Positions 2,271 through 18,035 of a DNA stretch of 19,894 nt are shown here, piece by piece. This stretch comes from Candidatus Aminicenantes bacterium (GTDB taxonomy: Bacteria > Acidobacteriota > Aminicenantia > Aminicenantales > Aminicenantaceae). The DNA lies in assembly GCA_020344415.1 (NCBI GenBank), contig CP070825.1:1604533-1624426 (forward strand), given 5' to 3'. Each line of letters starts with the position of its first letter. Positions within the stretch are counted from its first letter, which is position 1. The translations under genes were made by a program, and so were the position numbers. A model generated the notes under the pieces. It was given only the letters and a program-made list of their open reading frames with translations. It ran no database searches and was not told the DNA's origin.

Positions 2271-2423
2271 AATCTGACTAGCCTTGATTACTCATAAAAA
2301 TCACCCTAGGAATCACCTGTAAAGGCGAGTTACTTATTTTCATAACTTTAGTTGAATTATAAAGGGGCTTTGCCCTAATTGACACAGAAATTATAGTTGT
2401 TTATCATATATTCAAGAGCAAAA

Positions 2424-4055: not shown

Positions 4056-7000
4056 TTAGTCTTTTTTTATCTTCTTAGGTGGAAAAATGCGGGGAATATT
4101 GTTCTCGTTCATCAGTTTATTCAGTTTTGGAATATCCGCTTCTATTATCCTGTTTGCTCTCTCAATGAGTGTTTCTAATTCCTCAGAATTTTTGCTTATC
4201 TGTTGAATCTGGCGTTCAGAAGGAGCACCTGTAAATCCTCCAATGGACCTTCCGAGCGTGGACAACTGCCCTCTGATTGAAAAGCGCATTCCTCGCCTGC
4301 CCAATTGCGGATCGCCTAACAACTTGATCCGGATGTCATCAATTTCCTTGGATATAGCCTTAATATGCTCTATAACAGCCTCTGGCACGCCTGATACCTT
4401 TTTTAGAGCTGTATTCTGTTTCTGCATTTCATTTTTAATATTATTTGTGGTCCTGCTCAAAGCTAAAAGAGACGGATTCAACTTATAAATCTTCAAAAGC
4501 GCATCATGCTGTGCTTTCCTCTCTTCAAAGGAAATTTCGATCCTCTTGTCTCCTTCTACCTCAACTGTTTTTGTCATTTCTTGGCCCGCAGCTTTCAGGG
4601 TGACCTGGTATTTTCCGGGGAGAACAAATGGACCTCGGGAGCTGAAGCGTCGATCCGCCTCCCTAGTCACGGGAGGAGGACCATACCTAAGGTTCCAAGC
4701 AATCCGATTGATTCCTTTGTTTTTTGAACCTTTGACTTCCCTTATCATCTGACCAGCGCTATCCTGAACGATTATCTCGACACTATCCTTTGCCTGTTCT
4801 TTCAGATAGTAGCTTATCATGGCACCAAAAGGCGGGTTAGGAGCTACAAAAAATTTGTGACCAAGATTTCCCTTGCGGTTGTAAGGATTAAACATTATCG
4901 CTTTACGGATGTCGAAAAGATAGGCGGGAGAAGCAAGGTTTTCTTTGGTAAGCTGTTCCAAAGGAGTAATATCGTCTAAAATCCAGATGCTCCGGCCATG
5001 GGTACCGAAAATCAAGTCGTTCTCTCGAGGATGGATAGCAATGTCATCAACAGGAACGAGAGGAAAATTTCCTTTAAACTTTATCCAACTTATTCCCCTA
5101 TCAGTCGAGAAGTAGGCGCCTCTTTCAGTACCAATAAAGAGGAGATTGGGATTTCGATGATGCTCGCGGATAACGTTCACAATACTGCCTTTAGGCAGGT
5201 CCCTTGAGATGTCCTTCCAGCTCTCTCCGTAATTGGTTGTCGTGAAGACATAGGCTTTATAATCATCGTTTCTGTGTCCATCCAAAGTCGCATAAGCTGT
5301 CCCTTCCCCAAAGCGTGAAGCAACGACTCTGGTAACATAGGTGTTTTTGGGCACCCCAGGAATCTTGCTTATGACATTTTTCCAAGTTTTGCCGCCATCT
5401 CGAGAAACCTGAAGGTTGCCGTCATCCGTGCCTGCGTACAGAAGGCCTTCCTTGATTGGGGATTCAGAAATTGTAGTGATATCCCCAAAGTAAGAGATTC
5501 CGTCGTGACGGGAGAGGGTCCTCCTATCTGGAAGGACCCCCATGAGGGGGAGCTTTTCTCTATCCTGCTGAGTAGTAAGGTCTATCGAAGCTTCCCATGT
5601 CTCCCCTCTGTCTTTGGATTTAAAAAGTTTGTTTCCACCGTAATAAATAGTGTTGTGATCATGAGGGGAAATCAAAATCGGAGAATTCCAGTTGAATCTG
5701 TAGCTCTCTTTCTCATCCTCTGGCTGAGGCCTGATAGATTTGCTCTCTCCTGTCCTCAAGTCAAGCCTGAAGAGATTCCCATTCTGAGACTCTGCATAGA
5801 TTGTATTATAGTCTGTGGGATCAACCTGGGTATAAAAGCCATCTCCACCGCCGATTCTGAACCAATCTTCGTTTGTAACCCCCAATCGATTCCATGTCGA
5901 AGTCGGACTTCCCCAGCTCCCGTTATCCTGCAGGCCTCCATAAATATAGTATGGGGTGCGCATGTCAAAGCCTATCTCATAAAACTGTCCAAGGGGAAGA
6001 GTGTTAATAAAATCCCAAGTTTTGCCGCGATCGTAAGAAAAATAAATTCCTCCATCCGAGCCAAGAACAATGTTATTGGAGTTTTCAGGATTTATCCACA
6101 TGGCATGATGGTCGCCATGAACCCCTCTCACATAACTTGTATTAAAAGTTTTTCCTCCGTCTTCTGAGACATACATCCGGGCTCCCAGGACCCATATCCT
6201 CTGGTCGTTGTTCGGGTCTATTCGTATCTTGCTGTAATACATAGGGCGAGGATTCGTACTCGACATCTTTTTCCAGGATAAACCCTTGTCCTCAGACCGG
6301 AAGACGCCTCCCCGTCTGTTCTCGATAACTGCATAGACTATACTGGGGTTGCTTCTGAATATATCGATCCCGATGCGACCTGTATCCCCTGCAGGCAACC
6401 CGCTGGTCAGGCGAATCCAGGTCTCCCCTCCATCGGTTGTCTTAAAGAGGCCGCTTCCAGGCCCTCCTCCGTTAAAGCCCCAGCCTCGCCTTCTCCTTTG
6501 ATAAGCTGCCGCATACAGAGTATTTGGATTCTCATGATCCATGGCAACATCCACAAAGCCCGTGTTTTCGTCGATGAACTTCGTATTGACCCACGTCTTG
6601 CCGCCATCTGCTGTTTTAAAAAGGCCTCTTTCCTTGTTCGGACCCCAGAGATGGCCCAAGGCTGCCACATAGACTATGTCCGGGTTTGCGGGATGAATGA
6701 CTAGGCGACCGATATGATGCGTATCTTTTAGTCCCATATTCTTCCACGTCTTCCCTCCATCTGTCGATTTATAGACACCGTTCCCCCATGAAGAACTCTG
6801 GCGATTGTTGGGCTCTCCAGTGCCAACCCATACTATATCAGGATCTGAGGGCGAGACAGTCACATCTCCTATAGTGCTTGTCGGTTGATCATCAAAAATC
6901 GGTTCCCAGGTCACACCGTTGTTGGTCGTCTTCCACACTCCTCCTGAAGCAGTTCCTGCATAGATAATATGTGGCGAACTCTCCACAACAGCAAAGTCAT

Positions 7001-7309: not shown

Positions 7310-7467
7310 TTGGGGTCAGGCTTTCATAACTTTGATAAGTTCTGTGGTCAGTCAATATCCAAGGAAAAGCTGGATAACTGGTGAGAGAAAAATTTCTCTA
7401 CGCCGATGAGGCCTGACTTTGAACACCTAAAACTAAACTTATGAAACTTATGAAAGCCTGACCCCAA
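7310..7467. repeat. 158-bp element bounded by perfect 20-bp inverted repeats (TTGGGGTCAGGCTTTCATAA / TTATGAAAGCCTGACCCCAA); MITE-like or large regulatory palindrome
   Basis: Arms are at 7310-7329 and 7448-7467 and are exact reverse complements; the spacer is 118 bp. The right arm is preceded by a tandem 9-bp duplication ACTTATGAA x2 (7437-7454). An internal partial arm copy GCCTGAC lies at 7411-7417. The element sits in the 331-bp divergent intergenic region between the BNR gene and lpxK. Confidence 0.6.
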
Positions 7468-7509: not shown

Positions 7510-8490
7510 ATGAAATTTCTTCTCTTTTCCCTTTCTCTTTTTTATCGCATTGGGTGCCAGGCAAAAAATTTATTTTACAGGAGGAAAATCCTCAGGTCAA
7601 AGAGAGCCCCATTGACTGTAATCAGTATTGGAAACATCTCCTTTGGGGGAACAGAGAAAACCCCCTTAGTCATGAACCTGATGTCTTTCCTTACGACGCA
7701 AGGTTTTAAACCAGCCTTAATCTCTCGAGGGTATAAAGGGAAATGGGAAAAAAAAGGAGGTGTTCTCTCTGACGGGATTAGCCTATTCGGAACTTGGGTT
7801 GATTCAGGTGATGAGCCCTTCATGGTTGCTCAAAATATTCCTCAGGCCGGTGTTTTTATCGGAAAAAACCGCTTAAAATCATGCATTCATGCCAAGGATC
7901 TATCATTCGCGCCTGCTGTCTTGGATGACGGTTTTCAGCATCGCCGCCTTCACAGAGACCTGGATATTGTGCTCTTTGATCCCTCTAAAAAGCCGGCTCT
8001 CAGAGAGCCAGTTTCTTCCCTTAAAAGAGCCCACATCCTGTTGATAAAAAAAGGAGCCTCCACTCAGAAAAAGAAGGAAATTAAAAATATTATTTCCCAA
8101 ACAGCCGCGTTCGAATATGATGTTATCCATGGGGCTTTCTTTAATTTGGAAGGGAAAGAGAGAATTCCAGAAGAAGAACTCAAAGAAAAAAAAGTTCTTG
8201 CATTCTGCGGTATAGCCCGCCCAGAAAAATTCTCCGCTATGCTTCAAGAGAAAGGCCTAAAGATTGTTTCTTTCCTTAAATTTCCTGACCACCATTCTTA
8301 CCGCCCCTCTTCTCTAGAAAAAATTGTGGAAAAATACCAAAAAACAAAAGCTGAGGCATTGATCACAACAGAAAAGGACGCAGTGAAGATTTCAGATTTC
8401 GAAGGTTTCAAAAAAATTCCAGCGTATTACTTAAAGATCGACATCAGGCTCGAAGAAGAATTTTATAATAAAATTCTCTCTTTCTTATGA
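7510..8490 (+). CDS. lpxK: tetraacyldisaccharide 4'-kinase (lipid A biosynthesis)
   Basis: N-terminal hydrophobic anchor followed by the P-loop ISIGNISFGGTEKTP (LpxK signature VGNLTxGGTGKTP), then ISRGYKG and DDGFQH motifs characteristic of LpxK. Length 326 aa. Confidence 0.85.
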   Translation: MKFLLFSLSLFYRIGCQAKNLFYRRKILRSKRAPLTVISIGNISFGGTEKTPLVMNLMSFLTTQGFKPALISRGYKGKWEKKGGVLSDGISLFGTWVDSGDEPFMVAQNIPQAGVFIGKNRLKSCIHAKDLSFAPAVLDDGFQHRRLHRDLDIVLFDPSKKPALREPVSSLKRAHILLIKKGASTQKKKEIKNIISQTAAFEYDVIHGAFFNLEGKERIPEEELKEKKVLAFCGIARPEKFSAMLQEKGLKIVSFLKFPDHHSYRPSSLEKIVEKYQKTKAEALITTEKDAVKISDFEGFKKIPAYYLKIDIRLEEEFYNKILSFL

Positions 8491-10172: not shown

Positions 10173-11108
10173 ATGGACCGTTTCCTGGTAACAGGAGGAG
10201 CTGGATTCCTCGGAAGCCATCTCTGTGATTCTCTTCTGGCAAAAGGAGCCGATGTTGTCTGTATCGATAACTTTTTTTCAGGAAATAAGGATAACATCCG
10301 CCATCTTTTCTCTCGCAATTTCTTTGAACTGATCCGACACGATATTATCCATCCTCTCTTTGTGGAGGTAGACAAAATCTATCATCTTGCTTGCCCCGCC
10401 TCTCCGATACACTACCAACTCAATCCAATTAAAACAGTCAAGACGAATGTCATGGGAACTATAAACATGCTTGGATTAGCTAAGAGGATAAAAGCTCGTA
10501 TTCTCCTTGCTTCTTCCTCAGAAGTCTATGGCGATTCTCAAGTCCACCCGCAGCCGGAGAGTTATTGGGGGAATGTCAATCCCATAGGGCTCCGCAGCTG
10601 TTATGATGAAGGGAAAAGAGTGGCAGAAACCCTGATGATGGATTATCATCGCCAGAATAATGTCGACATCAAAATCGCTCGCATTTTCAATACCTACGGT
10701 CCTAGAATGGCCATCGACGACGGCAGAGTAGTCAGCAACTTTATCGTCCAGGCTTTAAAAAAGGAATCCCTTACGGTCTATGGGGATGGGAGCCAAACCC
10801 GCTCCTTTTGTTATGTCTCAGACCTTGTTCATGCTCTCATGACAATGATGGATGCCGATGAATTTTCAGGCCCTGTAAATCTTGGAAATCCAGCTGAGTT
10901 CACAATAATTGAGTTGGCAGAAAAAATCGTCAAGCTTACAAAAAGCTCTTCCAAGATTGTCCATAAACCTCTGCCTTCAGATGATCCTGTGCGAAGATGT
11001 CCTGACATTTCTTTAGCCAACGACAAATTGCACTGGACGCCAAAAATAGACCTGGAAGAAGGTCTGGTCAAGACCATTGATTATTTTAAAGAAAAATTGG
11101 GTCTATAA
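10173..11108 (+). CDS. uxs: UDP-glucuronate decarboxylase (UDP-xylose synthase family SDR)
   Basis: Rossmann [12 protein letters not shown] motif, [27 protein letters not shown], and the catalytic [12 protein letters not shown] block, which is near-identical to UXS1/ArnA-decarboxylase family signatures. 311 aa. AAGGAG RBS 8 nt upstream. Confidence 0.88.
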
Positions 11109-11123
11109 GAAAAAAATATCCTA

Positions 11124-11150
11124 GATTATTCACGAGTCGAGGTTGCCGCA
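11124..11150 (+). promoter_or_regulatory. left half of the bipartite conserved 5' module (copy 1): GATTATTCACGAGTCGAGGTTGCCGCA
   Basis: 26/27 identical to 16122-16148. It is separated from its right half (11465-11492) by the GC-rich insert, whereas the halves are only 14 bp apart in copy 2. Confidence 0.55.
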
Positions 11151-11360
11151 GAGTTCGTTGCGAAGAGCGAAGAGATGTCGCAATCCTCTGTTGCGAGTGA
11201 AGCGAAGCAATCTCATGCTTATAGCGAGATATCATGAGGTCACCACGCTTCGCTCGTGACAGAGGATCGCCACGCTCACTTCGTTCGCTCGTGATGACGT
11301 AGCCGTCCACCGCGAATGAGCCGCAACGAAGCAGATGCGGTGAGATCGGCTCGCCGTAAG
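11151..11360. repeat. GC-rich cluster of short palindromic repeats (REP/MITE-like or structured ncRNA) splitting the conserved module
   Basis: Local GC content is far above the window average. Direct and inverted copies of a GTTGCGA(A/G)..GCGAAG / CTTCGC..TCGCAAC unit occur at 11157-11174, 11190-11208, 11242-11257, 11271-11296 and 11321-11332. A terminal 9-bp inverted pair is TTCGTTGCG (11154-11162) with CGCAACGAA (11322-11330). Internal stems: TTGCGA/TCGCAA (11158-11163 / 11178-11183), AGCGAAGC/GCTTCGCT (11201-11208 / 11247-11254), CTCATG/CATGAG (11212-11217 / 11233-11238). The minus-strand ORFs here (11086..11310, 11276..11473) look like artefacts of the repeats. Confidence 0.55.
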
Positions 11361-11418
11361 GGAAAAATGTCGATAAATATAAATAGCTTCTTTTCTAAAA
11401 AATATTTATCATAATTTG

Positions 11419-11451
11419 CAGCAATATCAGAATATACTCCTGATATTGCTG
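11419..11451. promoter_or_regulatory. perfect 12-bp inverted repeat hairpin/palindrome CAGCAATATCAG-(9 nt)-CTGATATTGCTG immediately upstream of the GT2 gene
   Basis: The arms are exact reverse complements (11419-11430 and 11440-11451) with loop AATATACTC. It is not followed directly by a T-tract, so it is more likely an operator or RNA stem than an intrinsic terminator. Confidence 0.5.
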
Positions 11452-11464
11452 TAATTGAAGAACG

Positions 11465-11492
11465 TATCGGCATTTTTTATGAATAACTTAGG
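11465..11492 (+). promoter_or_regulatory. right half of the bipartite conserved 5' module (copy 1): TATCGGCATTTTTTATGAATAACTTAGG
   Basis: Matches 16163-16190 (TACCGGCATTTTTTATGAATAATTCAGG) at about 25/28 positions. It contains a TATGAAT -10-like hexamer and ends in AGG, 13 nt before the GT2 ATG (12 nt in copy 2). Its TGAATAA(T/C) is the inverted complement of ATTATTCA in the left half. Confidence 0.55.
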
Positions 11493-11505
11493 AGAGCCTG
11501 CTGAA

Positions 11506-12192
11506 ATGAAACTTTCAATAATCATTCCTGTTTACAACGAAAAAAATACCATAGAAGAAATCATCAGTCGCGTTCAGGCTGCTGAAGTTGGATTAGAAAA
11601 AGAAATAATCGTTGTGGATGACGGTTCTGAGGATGGAACTCGCCAGATTTTGGACAATCTAAATCAGCCGAATATAAAAACCTATATTCAACCCAAAAAT
11701 CAGGGAAAGGGGGCTGCACTCAGAACTGGTTTCTCCATGGCGGAAGGCGATATCATCCTTATCCAGGATGCTGATTTGGAATATGATCCAAAAGACTACC
11801 CTAAACTTCTTGAGCCTCTCCTCGATGGTCGCGCTGATGTCGTCTACGGTTCCCGTTTTCTTGGAGGACCTCACCGCGTTCTATATTTCTGGCATTATGT
11901 AGGAAATAGAATCATAACGACTCTCGCCAACATGTTTGTCAACCTGAACCTGAATGACATGGAAACGTGCTACAAGGTTTTCAAAAGAGAGCTCCTCAAC
12001 AAAATCACTCTCAAGTCAAAGCGATTCGGAATCGAACCTGAGATCACAATTAAATTTGCAAAACTCAAATGTAAAATCTACGAGGTTCCCATCTCTTATT
12101 CAGGAAGAGACTACACCGAAGGAAAGAAGATTGGGTGGAAGGATGGAGTGGCCGCTATCTTCCATATCATAAGGTTTAAGTTTTTCAACTAA
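11506..12192 (+). CDS. GT2 family polyprenyl-phosphate glycosyltransferase (DPM1/ArnC/GtrB-like catalytic domain, no C-terminal TM helices)
   Basis: MKLSIIIPVYNE...VVDDGS(E)DGT...DADLEYDP are GT-A DxD-type motifs typical of dolichol-P-mannose synthase-like enzymes. The ORF track extends it to a TTG at 11455 that lies inside the conserved module. The ATG at 11506, with AGGAG 11 nt upstream, is the more likely start. 228 aa. Confidence 0.8.
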   Translation: MKLSIIIPVYNEKNTIEEIISRVQAAEVGLEKEIIVVDDGSEDGTRQILDNLNQPNIKTYIQPKNQGKGAALRTGFSMAEGDIILIQDADLEYDPKDYPKLLEPLLDGRADVVYGSRFLGGPHRVLYFWHYVGNRIITTLANMFVNLNLNDMETCYKVFKRELLNKITLKSKRFGIEPEITIKFAKLKCKIYEVPISYSGRDYTEGKKIGWKDGVAAIFHIIRFKFFN

Positions 12193-13739: not shown

Positions 13740-16094
13740 ATGGTTTCAGAAAAAGTCAACCAAATCGGCGAATCACCCACCCTTAAGGTAACGGCCAAAG
13801 CCAAGGCTATGAAGGCTGAGGGAATAGATATCGTTGACCTCAGCGTTGGAGAGCCAGATTTTCCAACTCCGGATAACATTAAATCAGCAGGCATAAAAGC
13901 CATCCAGGAAAACTTCACCAAGTACACACAAAATGATGGAATCCCTACCCTTAAAGAGGCAGTCATCCACAGGCTGAAGGAAGATATAGGGCTTGCTTAT
14001 GAAAAGGAAGAAATCATCCTTTCCACTGGCGCCAAGAGCTCCCTCTATCATCTCATCCAGGCTCTGATCAATGAGAGCGAGGAGGTCATCATCCCCTCTC
14101 CCTATTGGGTGACCTACCCTCATGCTGTATCATTGGCAAAAGGAAAATCTGTCATCATCCCAACAAAGGAGGAGAATGGATTTATCTTAAGCGGTGACCA
14201 GCTAAAGTCTGCCATCTCTCCATCCACCAGAGCCTTAATCCTGAACAATCCCTCTAATCCTACGGGAGCAGCTTACCAGAAGCATGAGCAGGAAGCCTTG
14301 GCAGACGTCGTCCTTGAAGAGAATATCTACGTCATTGCTGACGAAATATATGAAAAACTTGTCTATGATGACTTCAAGTTTGTGAGCTTTGCATCACTTG
14401 GAGAGGAAATAAAAAAGAAAACCATCATCATTAACGGCGTCTCAAAAGCCTATTCAATGACTGGGTGGCGAATAGGCTTCGCCGCTGGTCCTGCAGACAT
14501 CATCAATGGCATGGCCAAAATCCAGAGCCACACCACATCCAATCCCTGCTCAATCTCACAAATAGCAAGCCGGGAAGCTTTAGGGGGACCCCAGCATGAA
14601 ATCTCCAGAATGGCATCTGAATTTCAGAGGCGCAGGAATTATGTCCTGATGCGGCTTCAGACCATCCCTAATGTTTCCTGTTTCAAACCGCAGGGAGCTT
14701 TCTATCTCTTTCCCAATTTTTCTCATTACTATGATAAAGAATTCAACAATGTCCAGATTAGAAACTCTTACGGCCTGGCATATTATCTTCTGAAAGAAGC
14801 AAACGTGGCAATTGTTCCCGGAGATGCCTTTGGGGCTGACGATCATATCCGTATATCCTATGCCACTTCTATGGAAAACCTAGAAAAAGGCATAGATAGA
14901 ATCGCGGAGGCTCTCACCCGCCTTAAAACGCCCAAAAAGGTCGTCCGCCTCGCTTTAAATAACACTATAACCCGAGAAAAAAAGCGAGTTCCTGTTGATT
15001 CCACGATCGACGTTAAGATGAGGGATGCTCTTGTAGCTGAGATGGAAAACCATCTCAGCTATGAAAATTACTTCGAATGGAATGCGAACATCAACGGCGT
15101 CATTGTTCAGCTGCGGACGAATGTCTCCCACCTCAACGATTTTTGGATCGAGAATTGGTATCCGGCTCAACTGGAAGCGGCACTGGAACCCCACGGCATC
15201 ATATATGCTGTTGATGGCATAGCAGGTCGAGAATCCCGTGCTTTCTACAACCCAGAAACAAAAACAGGAATTCTCGTCAACACAGACAATTATACTCCTT
15301 TGCGCAGCCTTGCTCTCGGTCTTGTCATGAACGTCTCAGAAAGATTATTTAACGTTCACGCAATCCGTGGGATGTCAGCAGACATTGATTGGAATGGACT
15401 GATCCTCGTCGGACCTAAAGGGACAAAGAAAACCGAGCTGTTCTTCGGCTTGTTCTCAGATGATAGATTCCGTCTCCACTCCAATGATCTCGTTTTTGTC
15501 CGTTTTTCAGGAGGTATAGCCCTGGCTGATTCCTCGGAGAGGAAGCTTTTCATGCCAACGAATACAGTAGAATCTTATCCTCGCTTAGCCTCCCTCTTTG
15601 ATAACAGCAAGTGTGAAAACGTTATTACGCGCAAAGATGACTGCCAGGACGCAGAGTGCCTCCGCCTGGATGACTGCCGCCTCGACCGGGGGTCACCTTA
15701 CTGCTATAAAGCTTCAAAAGACGCCCATGCCATTCTCGACCCATACTGGATTGAGGGAACAGCAATGCATATCAAACGCACTGCACTTCGTTGGATGTTT
15801 ATTCTCCGTTACGACAACGTCTCGCCGCCAGTAGTGGACGTCGAGGTGGAAGATGCCCTGCGCATGCTTGAATCCGGAGAAAGCCTGGGCGTTGCAAGAG
15901 ACCTTACTCCTTCTCAAAGAGAACCCTATTACAACCCCCACCTTCTCACAACAACCCCAGAGCAGATGGAACTTCAGAGGAGTTTTTTCGAGCGCTTCCT
16001 TGAGAACATTTCCTGTTATCTGTTCAACAGCGGAGTCGCCTCTTCTGAGGAAATCAAACGAATTGTGACAGGGGAGAGCAAAACCGAAGAATGA
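13740..16094 (+). CDS. fusion protein: class-I aspartate/aromatic aminotransferase (aa 1-395) + degenerate PEP-carboxykinase(ATP)-family domain (aa ~420-784)
   Basis: The N-terminal domain has GEPDFPTP, NNPSNPTGAAY and the PLP-lysine block SKAYSMTGWRIGF (K236). The C-terminal domain aligns colinearly with PckA and with the next gene: TDNY to GTWYGG; VHAIRG to MHCSA; LILVGPKGTKKTELFFGL to FFGLSGTGKTTLS (kinase-1a); RLHSNDL to RLIGDDEH; SGG to FEGGCYAKT; CENVITRKDD to ALLENVTVREDG. The Mn-binding KK of GEMKKG is absent and the P-loop second Gly is replaced by Lys. The 784-aa frame is continuous with no internal stop. Confidence 0.7.
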   Translation: MVSEKVNQIGESPTLKVTAKAKAMKAEGIDIVDLSVGEPDFPTPDNIKSAGIKAIQENFTKYTQNDGIPTLKEAVIHRLKEDIGLAYEKEEIILSTGAKSSLYHLIQALINESEEVIIPSPYWVTYPHAVSLAKGKSVIIPTKEENGFILSGDQLKSAISPSTRALILNNPSNPTGAAYQKHEQEALADVVLEENIYVIADEIYEKLVYDDFKFVSFASLGEEIKKKTIIINGVSKAYSMTGWRIGFAAGPADIINGMAKIQSHTTSNPCSISQIASREALGGPQHEISRMASEFQRRRNYVLMRLQTIPNVSCFKPQGAFYLFPNFSHYYDKEFNNVQIRNSYGLAYYLLKEANVAIVPGDAFGADDHIRISYATSMENLEKGIDRIAEALTRLKTPKKVVRLALNNTITREKKRVPVDSTIDVKMRDALVAEMENHLSYENYFEWNANINGVIVQLRTNVSHLNDFWIENWYPAQLEAALEPHGIIYAVDGIAGRESRAFYNPETKTGILVNTDNYTPLRSLALGLVMNVSERLFNVHAIRGMSADIDWNGLILVGPKGTKKTELFFGLFSDDRFRLHSNDLVFVRFSGGIALADSSERKLFMPTNTVESYPRLASLFDNSKCENVITRKDDCQDAECLRLDDCRLDRGSPYCYKASKDAHAILDPYWIEGTAMHIKRTALRWMFILRYDNVSPPVVDVEVEDALRMLESGESLGVARDLTPSQREPYYNPHLLTTTPEQMELQRSFFERFLENISCYLFNSGVASSEEIKRIVTGESKTEE

Positions 16095-16121
16095 TAATGC
16101 TATGTAATGTTAATATTCATG

Positions 16122-16190
16122 GATTATTCACGAGTCGAGGTTGCTGCATTATCTACAGAAAGTACCGGCATTTTTTATGAATAATTCAGG
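16122..16190 (+). promoter_or_regulatory. compact copy 2 of the bipartite conserved 5' module (left 16122-16148, 14-bp spacer, right 16163-16190) upstream of the PEPCK-like gene
   Basis: GATTATTCACGAGTCGAGGTTGCTGCA ... TACCGGCATTTTTTATGAATAATTCAGG. It has the same two halves, in the same order and orientation, as copy 1, with the same 12-13 nt distance from the terminal AGG to the ATG. Confidence 0.55.
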
Positions 16191-16202
16191 CATATAAGTA
16201 CA

Positions 16203-18035
16203 ATGAATGAAAAAAGCATCTATAAAGTAGAAGCCTATAAAAAATTTGCGGGGGAACTTCCACGAGTCCTCAAGGGGCCAAATATCCGAACCGTGGACCT
16301 CAAATGGCTTGAGCCAAGAGCGAAAGCTACGGGGACCAAAACTAAATACGGCTCCTATGGCTGGCGAGCAGCTATTTCTAGCCGGATTGCACCCAAGACT
16401 GTCTACTTAGGGAGCGAAGATATCCGACTCCCCAAGCCTACGGTTGAACAACAATCCTTGATCGCCAGGGCTCCAGAAGAGCTGGAAAAGGTGCTCCACC
16501 TCCTCCGAACTCTCCCCTTATACCACATCCGCCGTCAGATGGGAGAGAATGATTCGTACAATCCACTCTGTAACCTTTATTTTTCCGAAGCGGACCTCAT
16601 CAACTACCGCCTGGGATATATGTGGGGAAACACATTATTCAAGCCCAGCAAGCGACCGGGTCCTGAGTTCACCATGATTCACATCCCCGAAGAGCACCCC
16701 TTAAGGCAGCAGGTTCTTGCTCTTCCTGAAGACAACATCAATATTGCCCTGGGAACGGATTACATGGGAGAAGATAAAAAGGGCTTCCTCCGTCAGTCCA
16801 TGTGGACTGCGGATAAACTGGGTATGTTAGGGCTTCACTCCGGCACAAAACTCGTCACAGTCAGGGATGCTGATAACAAGCTCAAAACCTACGGAGTCTT
16901 CCTTTTTGGTCTCACTGCAACTGGCAAATCTACCTGGTCCTGTCATCAGCTCGGTCTTGACCATAAAAATGGCGAAAAAACAGAAGTGACTCAAGATGAC
17001 ATCGTTTTCCTCAAGACCGATGGATCTGCTCTAGGCACAGAAGGTGGCTTTTTTGTTAAAACAGATGTCGAGAGAGAAAACCAAGAAGCAATGTACAATG
17101 CCTTGATCGACAAATCTGCCCTTTATGAAAATGTCATGATCAGATCCAACGGAGACGTTGACTTCCTGGATGAAACCCTTACCGCAAATGGAAGAGCTGT
17201 TATACAGCGCGATAAACTCAAAGTGAGAATAAACGGAAAAATGGTCGGGATTGCATCAAAATCCATCAACCTTCCCCCTCTTGAAGAATTGGATGGATTG
17301 GTCTTTGCCTTTATAACCCGCAGAAACACCATCATGAGTTTTGCCCAGGAGCTCACTCCTGAGCAGGCAATCCTAGCCTATCTCTGGGGAGAAAGCACCC
17401 ACAGTTATGCCAGCCAGCCCCTTAAGGCCGGTGAGTCTGTGCGTATCGTGGGAACCGATCCATTCATTGTCGGATCAAGAGCCAAAAAAGTAAACCGCTT
17501 CTATGAAATTATCATGACCCTAGTCAGCAACTTTCCTGGGAAACTTAAGTTCATGCAGTACAATACAGGCGGACTGGGTGAGATTATCGAAACTCAAGAA
17601 GAAAACGGTCAACAGAAAAAAAGAATGGTGCGCAAGATCACCCGGGTTCCCATAAACTTGATGGCTCAAATCCAGAGGGGTGATCTTCGCGGAACAAATC
17701 ATTACGAAAAGGGAAGGCTCGGGACAAAAGAAGTAAAGAGCTGCGAAGGGCGAAACCTTGATGAATACGATATCCGCAAATTCTACTCAGAGGAGCAGAT
17801 CCAGCATTATATTAAAGATCTCGTAGAAGGAAGGCGCAACTTTACTGAGGAGATTGCCTCAGAAGGACTCCGACAGGAAATCCTGTATGCTGCAGAGCGC
17901 TCCTTCCGCATCGATAAAAGCGGCGAAAAAGAAAAGCCAGAAGTCCCAGAAAGTCCTGCTGAAGAAGAGAGGCCGTTTTATTACTGGGAATCTAAATCGA
18001 GACCCCGCCGAGGAGGATTCTGGAGATCAAAATAA
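16203..18035 (+). CDS. phosphoenolpyruvate carboxykinase (ATP) family protein, divergent (long N-terminus, charged/aromatic C-terminal tail)
   Basis: Colinear with E. coli PckA motifs: GTDYMGEDKKGF (GGTWYGGEMKKGMF), LHSG (MHCS His ligand), VFLFGLTATGKSTWS (kinase-1a FFGLSGTGKTTLS), DDIVF (GDDEHGW Asp ligands), GTEGGFFVKT (FEGGCYAKT), MYNALIDKSALYENVMIRSNGDVDF ([24 protein letters not shown]), NGRAVIQ (ENTRVSY Arg333), LTPEQAILAYLWGEST (LTADQTQYHFLSGFT), MQYNTGGLG (YLVNTGWNG). 610 aa versus about 540 for PckA. The N-terminal substrate-binding region is poorly conserved. Confidence 0.8.
   Translation: MNEKSIYKVEAYKKFAGELPRVLKGPNIRTVDLKWLEPRAKATGTKTKYGSYGWRAAISSRIAPKTVYLGSEDIRLPKPTVEQQSLIARAPEELEKVLHLLRTLPLYHIRRQMGENDSYNPLCNLYFSEADLINYRLGYMWGNTLFKPSKRPGPEFTMIHIPEEHPLRQQVLALPEDNINIALGTDYMGEDKKGFLRQSMWTADKLGMLGLHSGTKLVTVRDADNKLKTYGVFLFGLTATGKSTWSCHQLGLDHKNGEKTEVTQDDIVFLKTDGSALGTEGGFFVKTDVERENQEAMYNALIDKSALYENVMIRSNGDVDFLDETLTANGRAVIQRDKLKVRINGKMVGIASKSINLPPLEELDGLVFAFITRRNTIMSFAQELTPEQAILAYLWGESTHSYASQPLKAGESVRIVGTDPFIVGSRAKKVNRFYEIIMTLVSNFPGKLKFMQYNTGGLGEIIETQEENGQQKKRMVRKITRVPINLMAQIQRGDLRGTNHYEKGRLGTKEVKSCEGRNLDEYDIRKFYSEEQIQHYIKDLVEGRRNFTEEIASEGLRQEILYAAERSFRIDKSGEKEKPEVPESPAEEERPFYYWESKSRPRRGGFWRSK

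Follow-up and report, generated by a model that had tools for sequence, protein, structure and literature searches.

A probable MITE copy with a nested palindromic repeat in the epimerase–glycosyltransferase spacer of an Aminicenantes genome

Correia elements (CREE/NEMIS) of Neisseria are non-coding repeats of 100–400 nt that carry terminal inverted repeats and are flanked by a short AT-rich target duplication (TA). They occupy many intergenic sites, often adjoining a start or stop codon, share transcripts with their neighbors, form long hairpins, and occur in internally deleted size classes. The ERIC or IRU elements of enterobacteria form imperfect palindromes at least ~130 nt long. They lie in transcribed intergenic regions, behave in an orientation-dependent manner, appear conserved at the level of RNA structure, and vary in size by internal insertion or deletion. 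REPs are usually species-specific. Among insertion sequences, IS5 is characterized by duplicating 4 bp at YTAR-type targets, and the IS701 and IS1380 families also make duplications of 4 bp.

The element described in this article was analyzed within a 19,894-nt stretch of DNA from Candidatus Aminicenantes, the whole of which is referred to as the window. It is probably a degenerate member of a family of non-autonomous DNA transposons (MITEs), and this family is abundant in Aminicenantes-type sediment bacteria, the lineage of the window. The GC-rich block of the locus would then be the interior of this transposon, and it contains a second, nested palindromic repeat, termed HP.

Architecture of the element and its locus

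The spacer 11109–11505 is flanked by a UDP-sugar epimerase/decarboxylase-type gene (10173–11108, + strand) and by the gene of a family-2 glycosyltransferase (GT2; + strand, ATG at 11506). A Candidatus Aminicenantes MAG encodes a protein with 100% identity to this GT2. The MITE-like element fills most of this spacer with 375 nt, and its measured borders, together with those of HP and of the remnant of the family core, are collected in Table 1. A preliminary description of the locus had recognized a GC-rich block between the two halves of a conserved module occurring twice in the window. The block is readily recovered, with a GC fraction of 0.557 (11151–11360) vs 0.435 for the whole window, and so are the duplicated halves: positions 11119–11150 match 16117–16148 at 91%, and positions 11459–11492 match 16157–16190 at 88%. 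Their unequal spacing is likewise real, with 308 nt between the halves in copy 1 and 8 nt in copy 2. The block is built of iterated units as had been noted, two of them direct and two inverted, of ~35 nt each.

The relationship between the block and the halves is a different one from that proposed. Judged from the sequence, no host module was split by an inserted block; the halves are the two ends of one MITE and comprise its subterminal regions as well as its terminal inverted repeats. Copy 2 derives from the same element by deletion. The GC-rich block is the structured core of the MITE, half of which has been replaced by a second palindromic repeat. Only 11154–11298 represents this nested repeat, whereas about one third of the block (11299–11355) is the MITE's own conserved core. 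The initial guess of a REP/BIME or MITE-type insertion was thus right in kind but had the architecture inverted. The 9-bp inverted repeat 11154–11162/11322–11330, which had been taken to close the block, exists as well but is not the terminus of an inserted unit, and it was rejected as an insertion boundary: its left arm is the start of HP, and its right arm, CGCAACGAA, belongs to the conserved core and is also present in copies without the hairpin. It links the start of HP to the core and, in the predicted fold, prolongs the rod formed by the latter.

Table 1. Coordinates of the element, its parts, and its second copy in the window
Feature	Position	Strand	Description
Whole element	11119..11493		375 nt
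Left terminal inverted repeat	11119..11132	+	TCCTAGATTATTCA; family consensus CCTGGATTATTCA; pairs with 11480-11493 over 14 nt, 86% complementarity
Outer core helix, 5' strand	11133..11153	+	CGAGTCGAGG TTGCCGCA, then GAG; equals columns 14-31 of alignment A2
Nested palindromic repeat HP	11154..11298	.	Two units of ~35 nt, a loop, two inverted units; replaces the 5' half of the inner core helices
Remnant 3' half of the GC-rich core rod	11299..11355	+	…GTCCACCGCGAATGAGCCGCAACGAAGCAGATGCGGTGAGATCGGCTCGCC; 65% GC; aligns with canonical copies
AT-rich variable part	11363..11477	+	Enclosing stem AAAAATGTCGATA / TATCGGCATTTTT (11363-11375 / 11465-11477); inner hairpin 11409-11430 / 11440-11461
Right terminal inverted repeat	11480..11493	+	TGAATAACTTAGGA; family consensus TGAATAATTCAGG
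Second MITE copy, interior deleted	16117..16190	+	74 nt; termini CATGGATTATTCA … TGAATAATTCAGG; 21.6 bits with covariance model R1

The whole element is predicted to fold into a single closed structure of −161.7 kcal/mol (z −12; a canonical copy reaches z −10.6). Herein, the 5' strand of the outer core helix pairs with 11331–11352, as columns 14–31 of the family alignment A2 pair with columns 98–117. The interior contains no ORF of at least 80 aa, except for a TTG upstream extension of the GT2 frame (listed ORF 11455–12192) that overlaps the right end. The last bases of the right terminal repeat and the flank together create an AGGAG, 11 nt upstream of the GT2 ATG. A scan for consensus promoters and terminators gave no + strand site within the element. 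The motif TTGAAG-N17-TATGAA had been seen by eye, and the right end was considered as the supplier of a consensus sigma-70 promoter; this candidate fails the criteria of the scan and was dropped. A near-identical Logan contig ends at window position 11326, within the repeat.

Copies, target duplications, and orthologous loci

The 19-mer of the left end, GATTATTCACGAGTCGAGG, was found at no fewer than 120 loci (≥120) on metagenome contigs, in unrelated gene contexts; some of the contigs perhaps carry orthologous copies from related genomes, so that such counts overstate the number of independent insertions. Several copies lie on the same contig in L043, L097, and L118; the window holds two copies and a remnant, and the contig L003 holds four. 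Among the matches listed, elements with paired ends fall into groups of ~203 nt (~205 nt), ~253 nt (~255 nt), interior-deleted forms of 63–85 nt, and composites of 280–635 nt. The second copy of the window is of the deleted kind and sits 12 nt upstream of the PEPCK-like gene; similar derivatives of 63–85 nt are found in L143, L086, L046, L116, and L067. The terminal inverted repeats of the family measure 13–14 nt.

Identical 4-mers flank 35 of the 89 distinct paired elements among the matches listed, whereas 1000 shuffled pairings gave 8 on average and never more than 17. These 4-mers include TTAA (12 times), CTAA (7), TTAG (4), and CTAG (3). Since the nonpalindromic CTAA and TTAG occur, they are direct duplications and not extensions of the inverted repeats. 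Through the YTAR type of these duplications (TTAA, CTAA, TTAG, CTAG), the family is presumably linked to IS5, and the MITE may derive from an IS5-type element; because no IS with matching ends was found, the duplication is the basis of this assignment. The window copy itself is flanked by ATAT on one side and AGAG on the other, so no matching 4-bp duplication is present, and its inverted repeats are degenerate. For these reasons, its history of transposition is read from the family.

A search between all terminus pairs in the 874 kb of fetched contigs revealed neither an autonomous element nor a transposase bounded by these ends; the pairs enclose only ordinary genes and one ORF resembling a group II intron reverse transcriptase. 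The latter (L056, 75–2465, between two MITE termini) encodes 451 aa with …GVDGQTF…RRVYIPKANGKQRPLGIPT. The MITE was not found in the plasmid and viral collections, and a search of the literature for these sequences, or for Aminicenantes together with MITE, returned nothing relevant.

Further sites with related features were observed. At window positions 2282–2294, a terminus-like CCTTGATTACTCA preceded by CTAG directly follows the stop of a ComEC-like gene, and a similar site is found at the orthologous place in L003 (648–660); a third MITE copy has probably left this remnant. A separate element of 158 nt (7310–7467), with 32-nt arms of 94% complementarity (TTGGGGTCAGGCTTTCATAACTTTGATAAGTT …), lies in the spacer upstream of lpxK and probably belongs to a second MITE family. 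A terminus similar to that of this element, TTGGGGTCAGAC, adjoins a MITE in L150.

The right end of the family copies commonly lies 2–12 nt from a start codon (among the matches listed). The start called for the GT2 of L003 (10001–10714) is an ATG within the MITE right end (tATGaataattcagg), which yields a protein of 237 aa and not of 228 aa. Spurious or alternative N termini can hence arise from MITE ends.

In the closed Aminicenantes genome CP070750.1 (L002), a more distant relative than L003 with a GT2 of 78% identity, there is a 4-nt overlap between the epimerase and GT2 genes, leaving no spacer and no MITE there. In L003 and L004, both with a GT2 of 88% identity, the spacer shares its termini and the right-hand part of the GC-rich block with that of the window but is without the long hairpin. 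The MITE in the epimerase–GT2 spacer is therefore common to the window and L003 lineages, with HP only in the window copy. The further copies of L003 comprise a complete one at an unrelated place (1520–1839), another of 29 nt with the termini only, and a third, itself 47 nt long, upstream of the PEPCK-like gene of L003. Two neighboring genes of the window keep their synteny in both L002 and L003. The first (13740–16094) encodes a 784-aa protein in which a class I/II aminotransferase domain covers only residues 30–388; the second (16203–18035) encodes a 610-aa protein with a partial PEPCK_ATP match (residues 94–355, E 2e-25).

These loci bear on the idea that the block is a cis-regulatory RNA specific for the GT2/cell-envelope operon, be it a riboswitch, an attenuator, or an sRNA. 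The preliminary description had admitted an embedded RNA of this sort, and the location in the spacer ahead of GT2, on the strand of that gene, would agree with it, as would the very stable predicted structure. However, the same element adjoins unrelated genes in at least 120 contigs, which leaves a gene-specific sRNA or riboswitch unsupported. The orthologous spacer of L003 moreover lacks the hairpin, L002 lacks any spacer, and both strands fold equally well. Rfam, at gathering and permissive thresholds, gave nothing relevant for the window, the spacer (E ≤ 1), ten canonical copies, or the HP copies. A gene-specific RNA is hence considered very improbable. The preliminary description had itself named a single occurrence with an unchanged orthologous spacer, or a known RNA family, as grounds for giving up a mobile insertion; what was found is a sequence repeated at many loci, an orthologous spacer that differs, and no Rfam match. 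The element is primarily selfish DNA.

The GC-rich core and the nested palindrome

Between the left end and GATCGGCTCGCC, canonical copies share a conserved GC-rich core of ~100 nt. Its structure was derived by RNAalifold from alignment A2, which contains 65 distinct cores. In the prediction, three helices with 33 pairs make up a rod, and changes on both sides are seen at 21 of the pairs. Standard pairs occupy 96.4% of the cells, compared with 86.9% when partners are shuffled (none of 500 shuffles was as high) and with 31–43% when the partner is slid by one to three columns. The covariation score amounts to 0.368 vs 0.183 for the shuffled control. On the strand that runs from the left to the right end, termed sense, 261 G·U pairs face 26 A·C mismatches, a ratio slightly favored by the prediction of the structure on this same strand. 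The orientation of the elements is also biased: relative to tandem neighbor genes, 22 point in the same and 8 in the opposite direction (p = 0.016), and over all flanking genes the numbers are 79 and 41 (both among the matches listed). A second stem, AAAAATGCCGAT/ATCGGCATTTTT, closes round the AT-rich part, which is wholly different between subfamilies. Its arms vary in a compensatory manner (ATGCCGA/TCGGCAT, ATGTCGA/TCGACAT, and TGGCG/CGCCA).

The modeled sense-strand structure of the canonical core suggests a role of the family at the level of RNA or of a single strand. This core is largely lost in the window copy: the canonical TGCGAGGCGTCGGCCCATGAAGCT, which forms the 5' half of the inner core helices, is replaced by 11154–11298, and the 3' half of the core is kept at 11299–11355. 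With the covariance model R1 of the core, the window copy scores 26 bits vs 130 bits for the canonical copy of L003.

Taken further, the core could be a domesticated sense-strand RNA module (an mRNA stabilizer, a processing site, or an insulator) that was spread by transposition and of which the window copy is a working variant regulating GT2 relative to the epimerase. Such a module is favored by the strong covariation, by sense-strand G·U pairs being ten times as frequent as A·C, by the orientation bias along genes, and by the common position of the right end close to a start codon. Pairing of TTCGTTGCG, with which HP begins, to the surviving core strand CGCAACGAA moreover preserves one continuous rod in the predicted fold of the window copy. 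Yet the core model gives the window copy just 26 bits, many copies have lost or exchanged the interior, which is thus dispensable, and no Rfam relative exists among the families searched. The G·U asymmetry and the orientation bias would also fit an effect of single-stranded DNA or of the replication strand, the latter acting on a single-strand DNA intermediate. A domesticated regulatory module is for these reasons regarded as doubtful, and the reading as a MITE copy that is primarily selfish is preferred.

HP itself is a palindrome with ends of the GTCATTGCGAGG...CTCGCAATGAC type. It forms an imperfect hairpin of ~145 nt within the GC-rich block, with 41-nt arms (11177–11217/11233–11273) that are 76% complementary. 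AGCGAAG-type repeats recur at a distance of 35 nt, and TTCGCTCGTGA occurs twice at the same distance. Folding of the block, a check that the preliminary description had proposed, gave −102.8 kcal/mol for the + strand and −99.1 kcal/mol for the − strand, far beyond chance at z −5.3 for both (none of 200 shuffles was as good). The wobble-pair strand asymmetry of the family core is absent from HP (15 vs 18). Because this asymmetry is lacking and both strands fold equally well, HP behaves as a DNA-level palindrome, REP/REPIN-like in form.

The HP arm motif was matched 38 times in the 874 kb of fetched contigs. Within MITEs, HP occurs at two fixed offsets, 36 nt and ~97 nt from the left end, both directly after GCAGA, with 17 cases at offset 36. 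Copies outside MITEs stand alone, as palindromes that end in TGTCATTGCGAGG … CTCGCAATGACA-type sequences. Two further MAGs, one of Aminicenantes and one labelled Eubacteriales, contain the two-unit arm of the window (…GCAATCC followed by TCTGTTGCGAG…). The hairpin unit CTCTGTYRCGAGYGAAGCG has 29 loci in genome contigs, which is about the number expected by chance (estimate ~35), and real relatives among these are only the Aminicenantes MAG CSMAG_1065 (four matches) and one "Eubacteriales" MAG. In CSMAG_1065, hairpin units lie beside a truncated gene for a 23S rRNA-intervening-sequence protein (L018, 1132–1344; PF05635, E 3e-27) and, in L009 as read by eye (~6560–6620), beside runs of CTAACTGA-type short tandem repeats.

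Beyond these genomes, the 20-mer CATTGCGAGGARCGAAGYGA occurs at 95 unique IMG/VR sites on contigs of 38–71% GC and is nearly always extended as CG..GCAATC. The 33-nt HP arm GTCATTGCGAGGAGCGAAGCGACGnnGCAATC is almost invariant across the IMG/VR loci L154–L251 (38–71% GC) and plasmids, at sites that are all unannotated. On viral contigs, two thirds of the sites consist of a single arm, which often immediately precedes a ribosome-binding site. Related palindromes are carried by alpha- and gammaproteobacterial plasmids, namely of Methylocystis, Methylosinus, Novosphingobium, Legionella, and Halomonas (NZ_CP017076.1, NZ_CP034088.1, and others), and the Novosphingobium replicon NZ_CP017076.1 alone has 36 places. 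No annotation or literature for HP was found. A third level of nesting was observed in L074 (a 635-nt element) and in L050 (~8000–8100), where an AT-rich insert of ~300 nt with inverted ends of its own (GGGCATAAAGGTCACAAA …) splits the hairpin inside the MITE.

HP (11154–11298) might accordingly be a REP/REPIN-type repeat mobilized by a RAYT (REP-associated Y1 transposase) that inserted itself into the resident MITE after GCAGA, which would make the block a BIME-like cluster and not a passive passenger of the MITE. It has the REP/REPIN form, namely an inverted doublet of 20–40-nt (here ~35-nt) imperfect palindromes in many dispersed extragenic copies, some of them outside MITEs and 36 on the single Novosphingobium replicon. 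The two alternative positions in MITEs, each directly after GCAGA, the orthologous L003 copy without HP, and the missing wobble asymmetry, as expected of a DNA-level palindrome, point in the same direction. The units, however, begin with GTCATTGCG, GTCGTTGCG, or TTCGTTGCG, and a GTAG/GTGG-type 5' tetranucleotide is absent. MITEs bearing HP occur in many contexts (the 17 at offset 36), and gene conversion between MITE copies explains the window copy equally well. A 33-nt arm that is near-identical across contigs of 38–71% GC is furthermore unusual for REPs, which are normally species-specific. Self-insertion of HP by a RAYT therefore seems possible but rather unlikely, and the preferred reading is that of a degenerate MITE copy into which HP came as a nested, later addition.

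For this MITE copy, the following history is proposed. The MITE would have been mobilized in trans by a DDE transposase making 4-bp YTAR duplications (IS5-like). Its insertion would have separated two operon genes that used to overlap, at a time when the lineages of the window and L003 had not yet diverged. HP would have reached the resident MITE afterwards. Gene conversion, with another HP-bearing copy as donor, is one possible route, and insertion or recombination at microhomologies is the other; the junctions contain TGCGAGG on the left and GGTCGTC on the right. The element may now be transcribed with the epimerase–GT2 operon as a closed, highly structured intercistronic spacer of ~375 nt, and read-through is the simplest reading since the consensus scan gives no + strand promoter or terminator in the element. 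Such a spacer would uncouple the epimerase from GT2 by abolishing translational coupling and may alter processing or stability of the mRNA, while supplying no consensus promoter. The element may also affect GT2 expression locally.

A more far-reaching and speculative reading, to which we give limited credence, concerns both repeats. The ~100-nt rod, spread to hundreds of Aminicenantes intergenic sites, might be a functional sense-strand RNA, or else a single-strand element that the MITE requires for its mobility, and HP might be a cross-phylum element, mobile or recognized by a protein, that has a conserved and as yet undescribed partner. Three features stand out: the structural constraint on one strand of the MITE core, the persistence of HP across phyla, and the lack of a transposase partner among the fetched contigs.

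Comparison with known systems

Annotators should take the "conserved module" that precedes the GT2 and PEPCK-like genes as the footprint of a mobile element and not as a site of shared regulation. Footprints of this kind can be expected all through these genomes, where they will break assemblies. An uncharacterized high-copy MITE family is herewith documented in an uncultured phylum, and the structural constraint of its interior on one strand is unusual. Palindromic repeats are nested at three levels, one of which (HP) is shared with very distant bacteria. The element also split two genes that overlap in a relative, which makes the locus a natural case for the tolerance of operons toward insertions.

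Like Correia elements, the MITE family is small and non-coding, has inverted ends and an AT-rich target duplication, occurs at many intergenic sites and in deleted size classes, is often found close to start or stop codons, is predicted to form long hairpins, and would share transcripts with its neighbors. The sequences are unrelated, however, the host phylum is a different one, and the duplication is TA for Correia elements, whereas the MITE duplicates 4 bp (TTAA/CTAA/TTAG/CTAG). The interior differs as well: it consists of a covarying rod and a variable AT-rich cassette in the MITE family and of one simple palindrome in Correia elements. A promoter, an IHF site, and RNase III processing are points of comparison on the Correia side; for the window copy of the MITE, the consensus scan gave no + strand promoter. 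With ERIC or IRU elements, the family shares palindromic structure, intergenic location, orientation-dependent behavior, apparent conservation of RNA structure, and size variants by insertion or deletion. ERIC elements are without clear target duplications or a known transposase type, in contrast to the explicit 4-bp duplications and 13-nt inverted ends of the MITE family. IS5-derived MITEs have in common with the family the YTAR 4-bp duplication, short terminal inverted repeats, and non-coding interiors, and differ in that no IS with matching ends was found for the family here.

HP resembles REP, BIME, and REPIN sequences in its ~35-nt imperfect palindromic units, their arrangement as inverted doublets, and its many dispersed extragenic sites. 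Unlike these, it has no GTAG-type head, its arm is near-identical across very different bacteria, and it is embedded in another mobile element. By analogy, the mode of action of the family would thus most resemble that of the Correia and ERIC classes, that is, of transcribed and structured intergenic repeats, and its nested part would most resemble REP/REPIN doublets.
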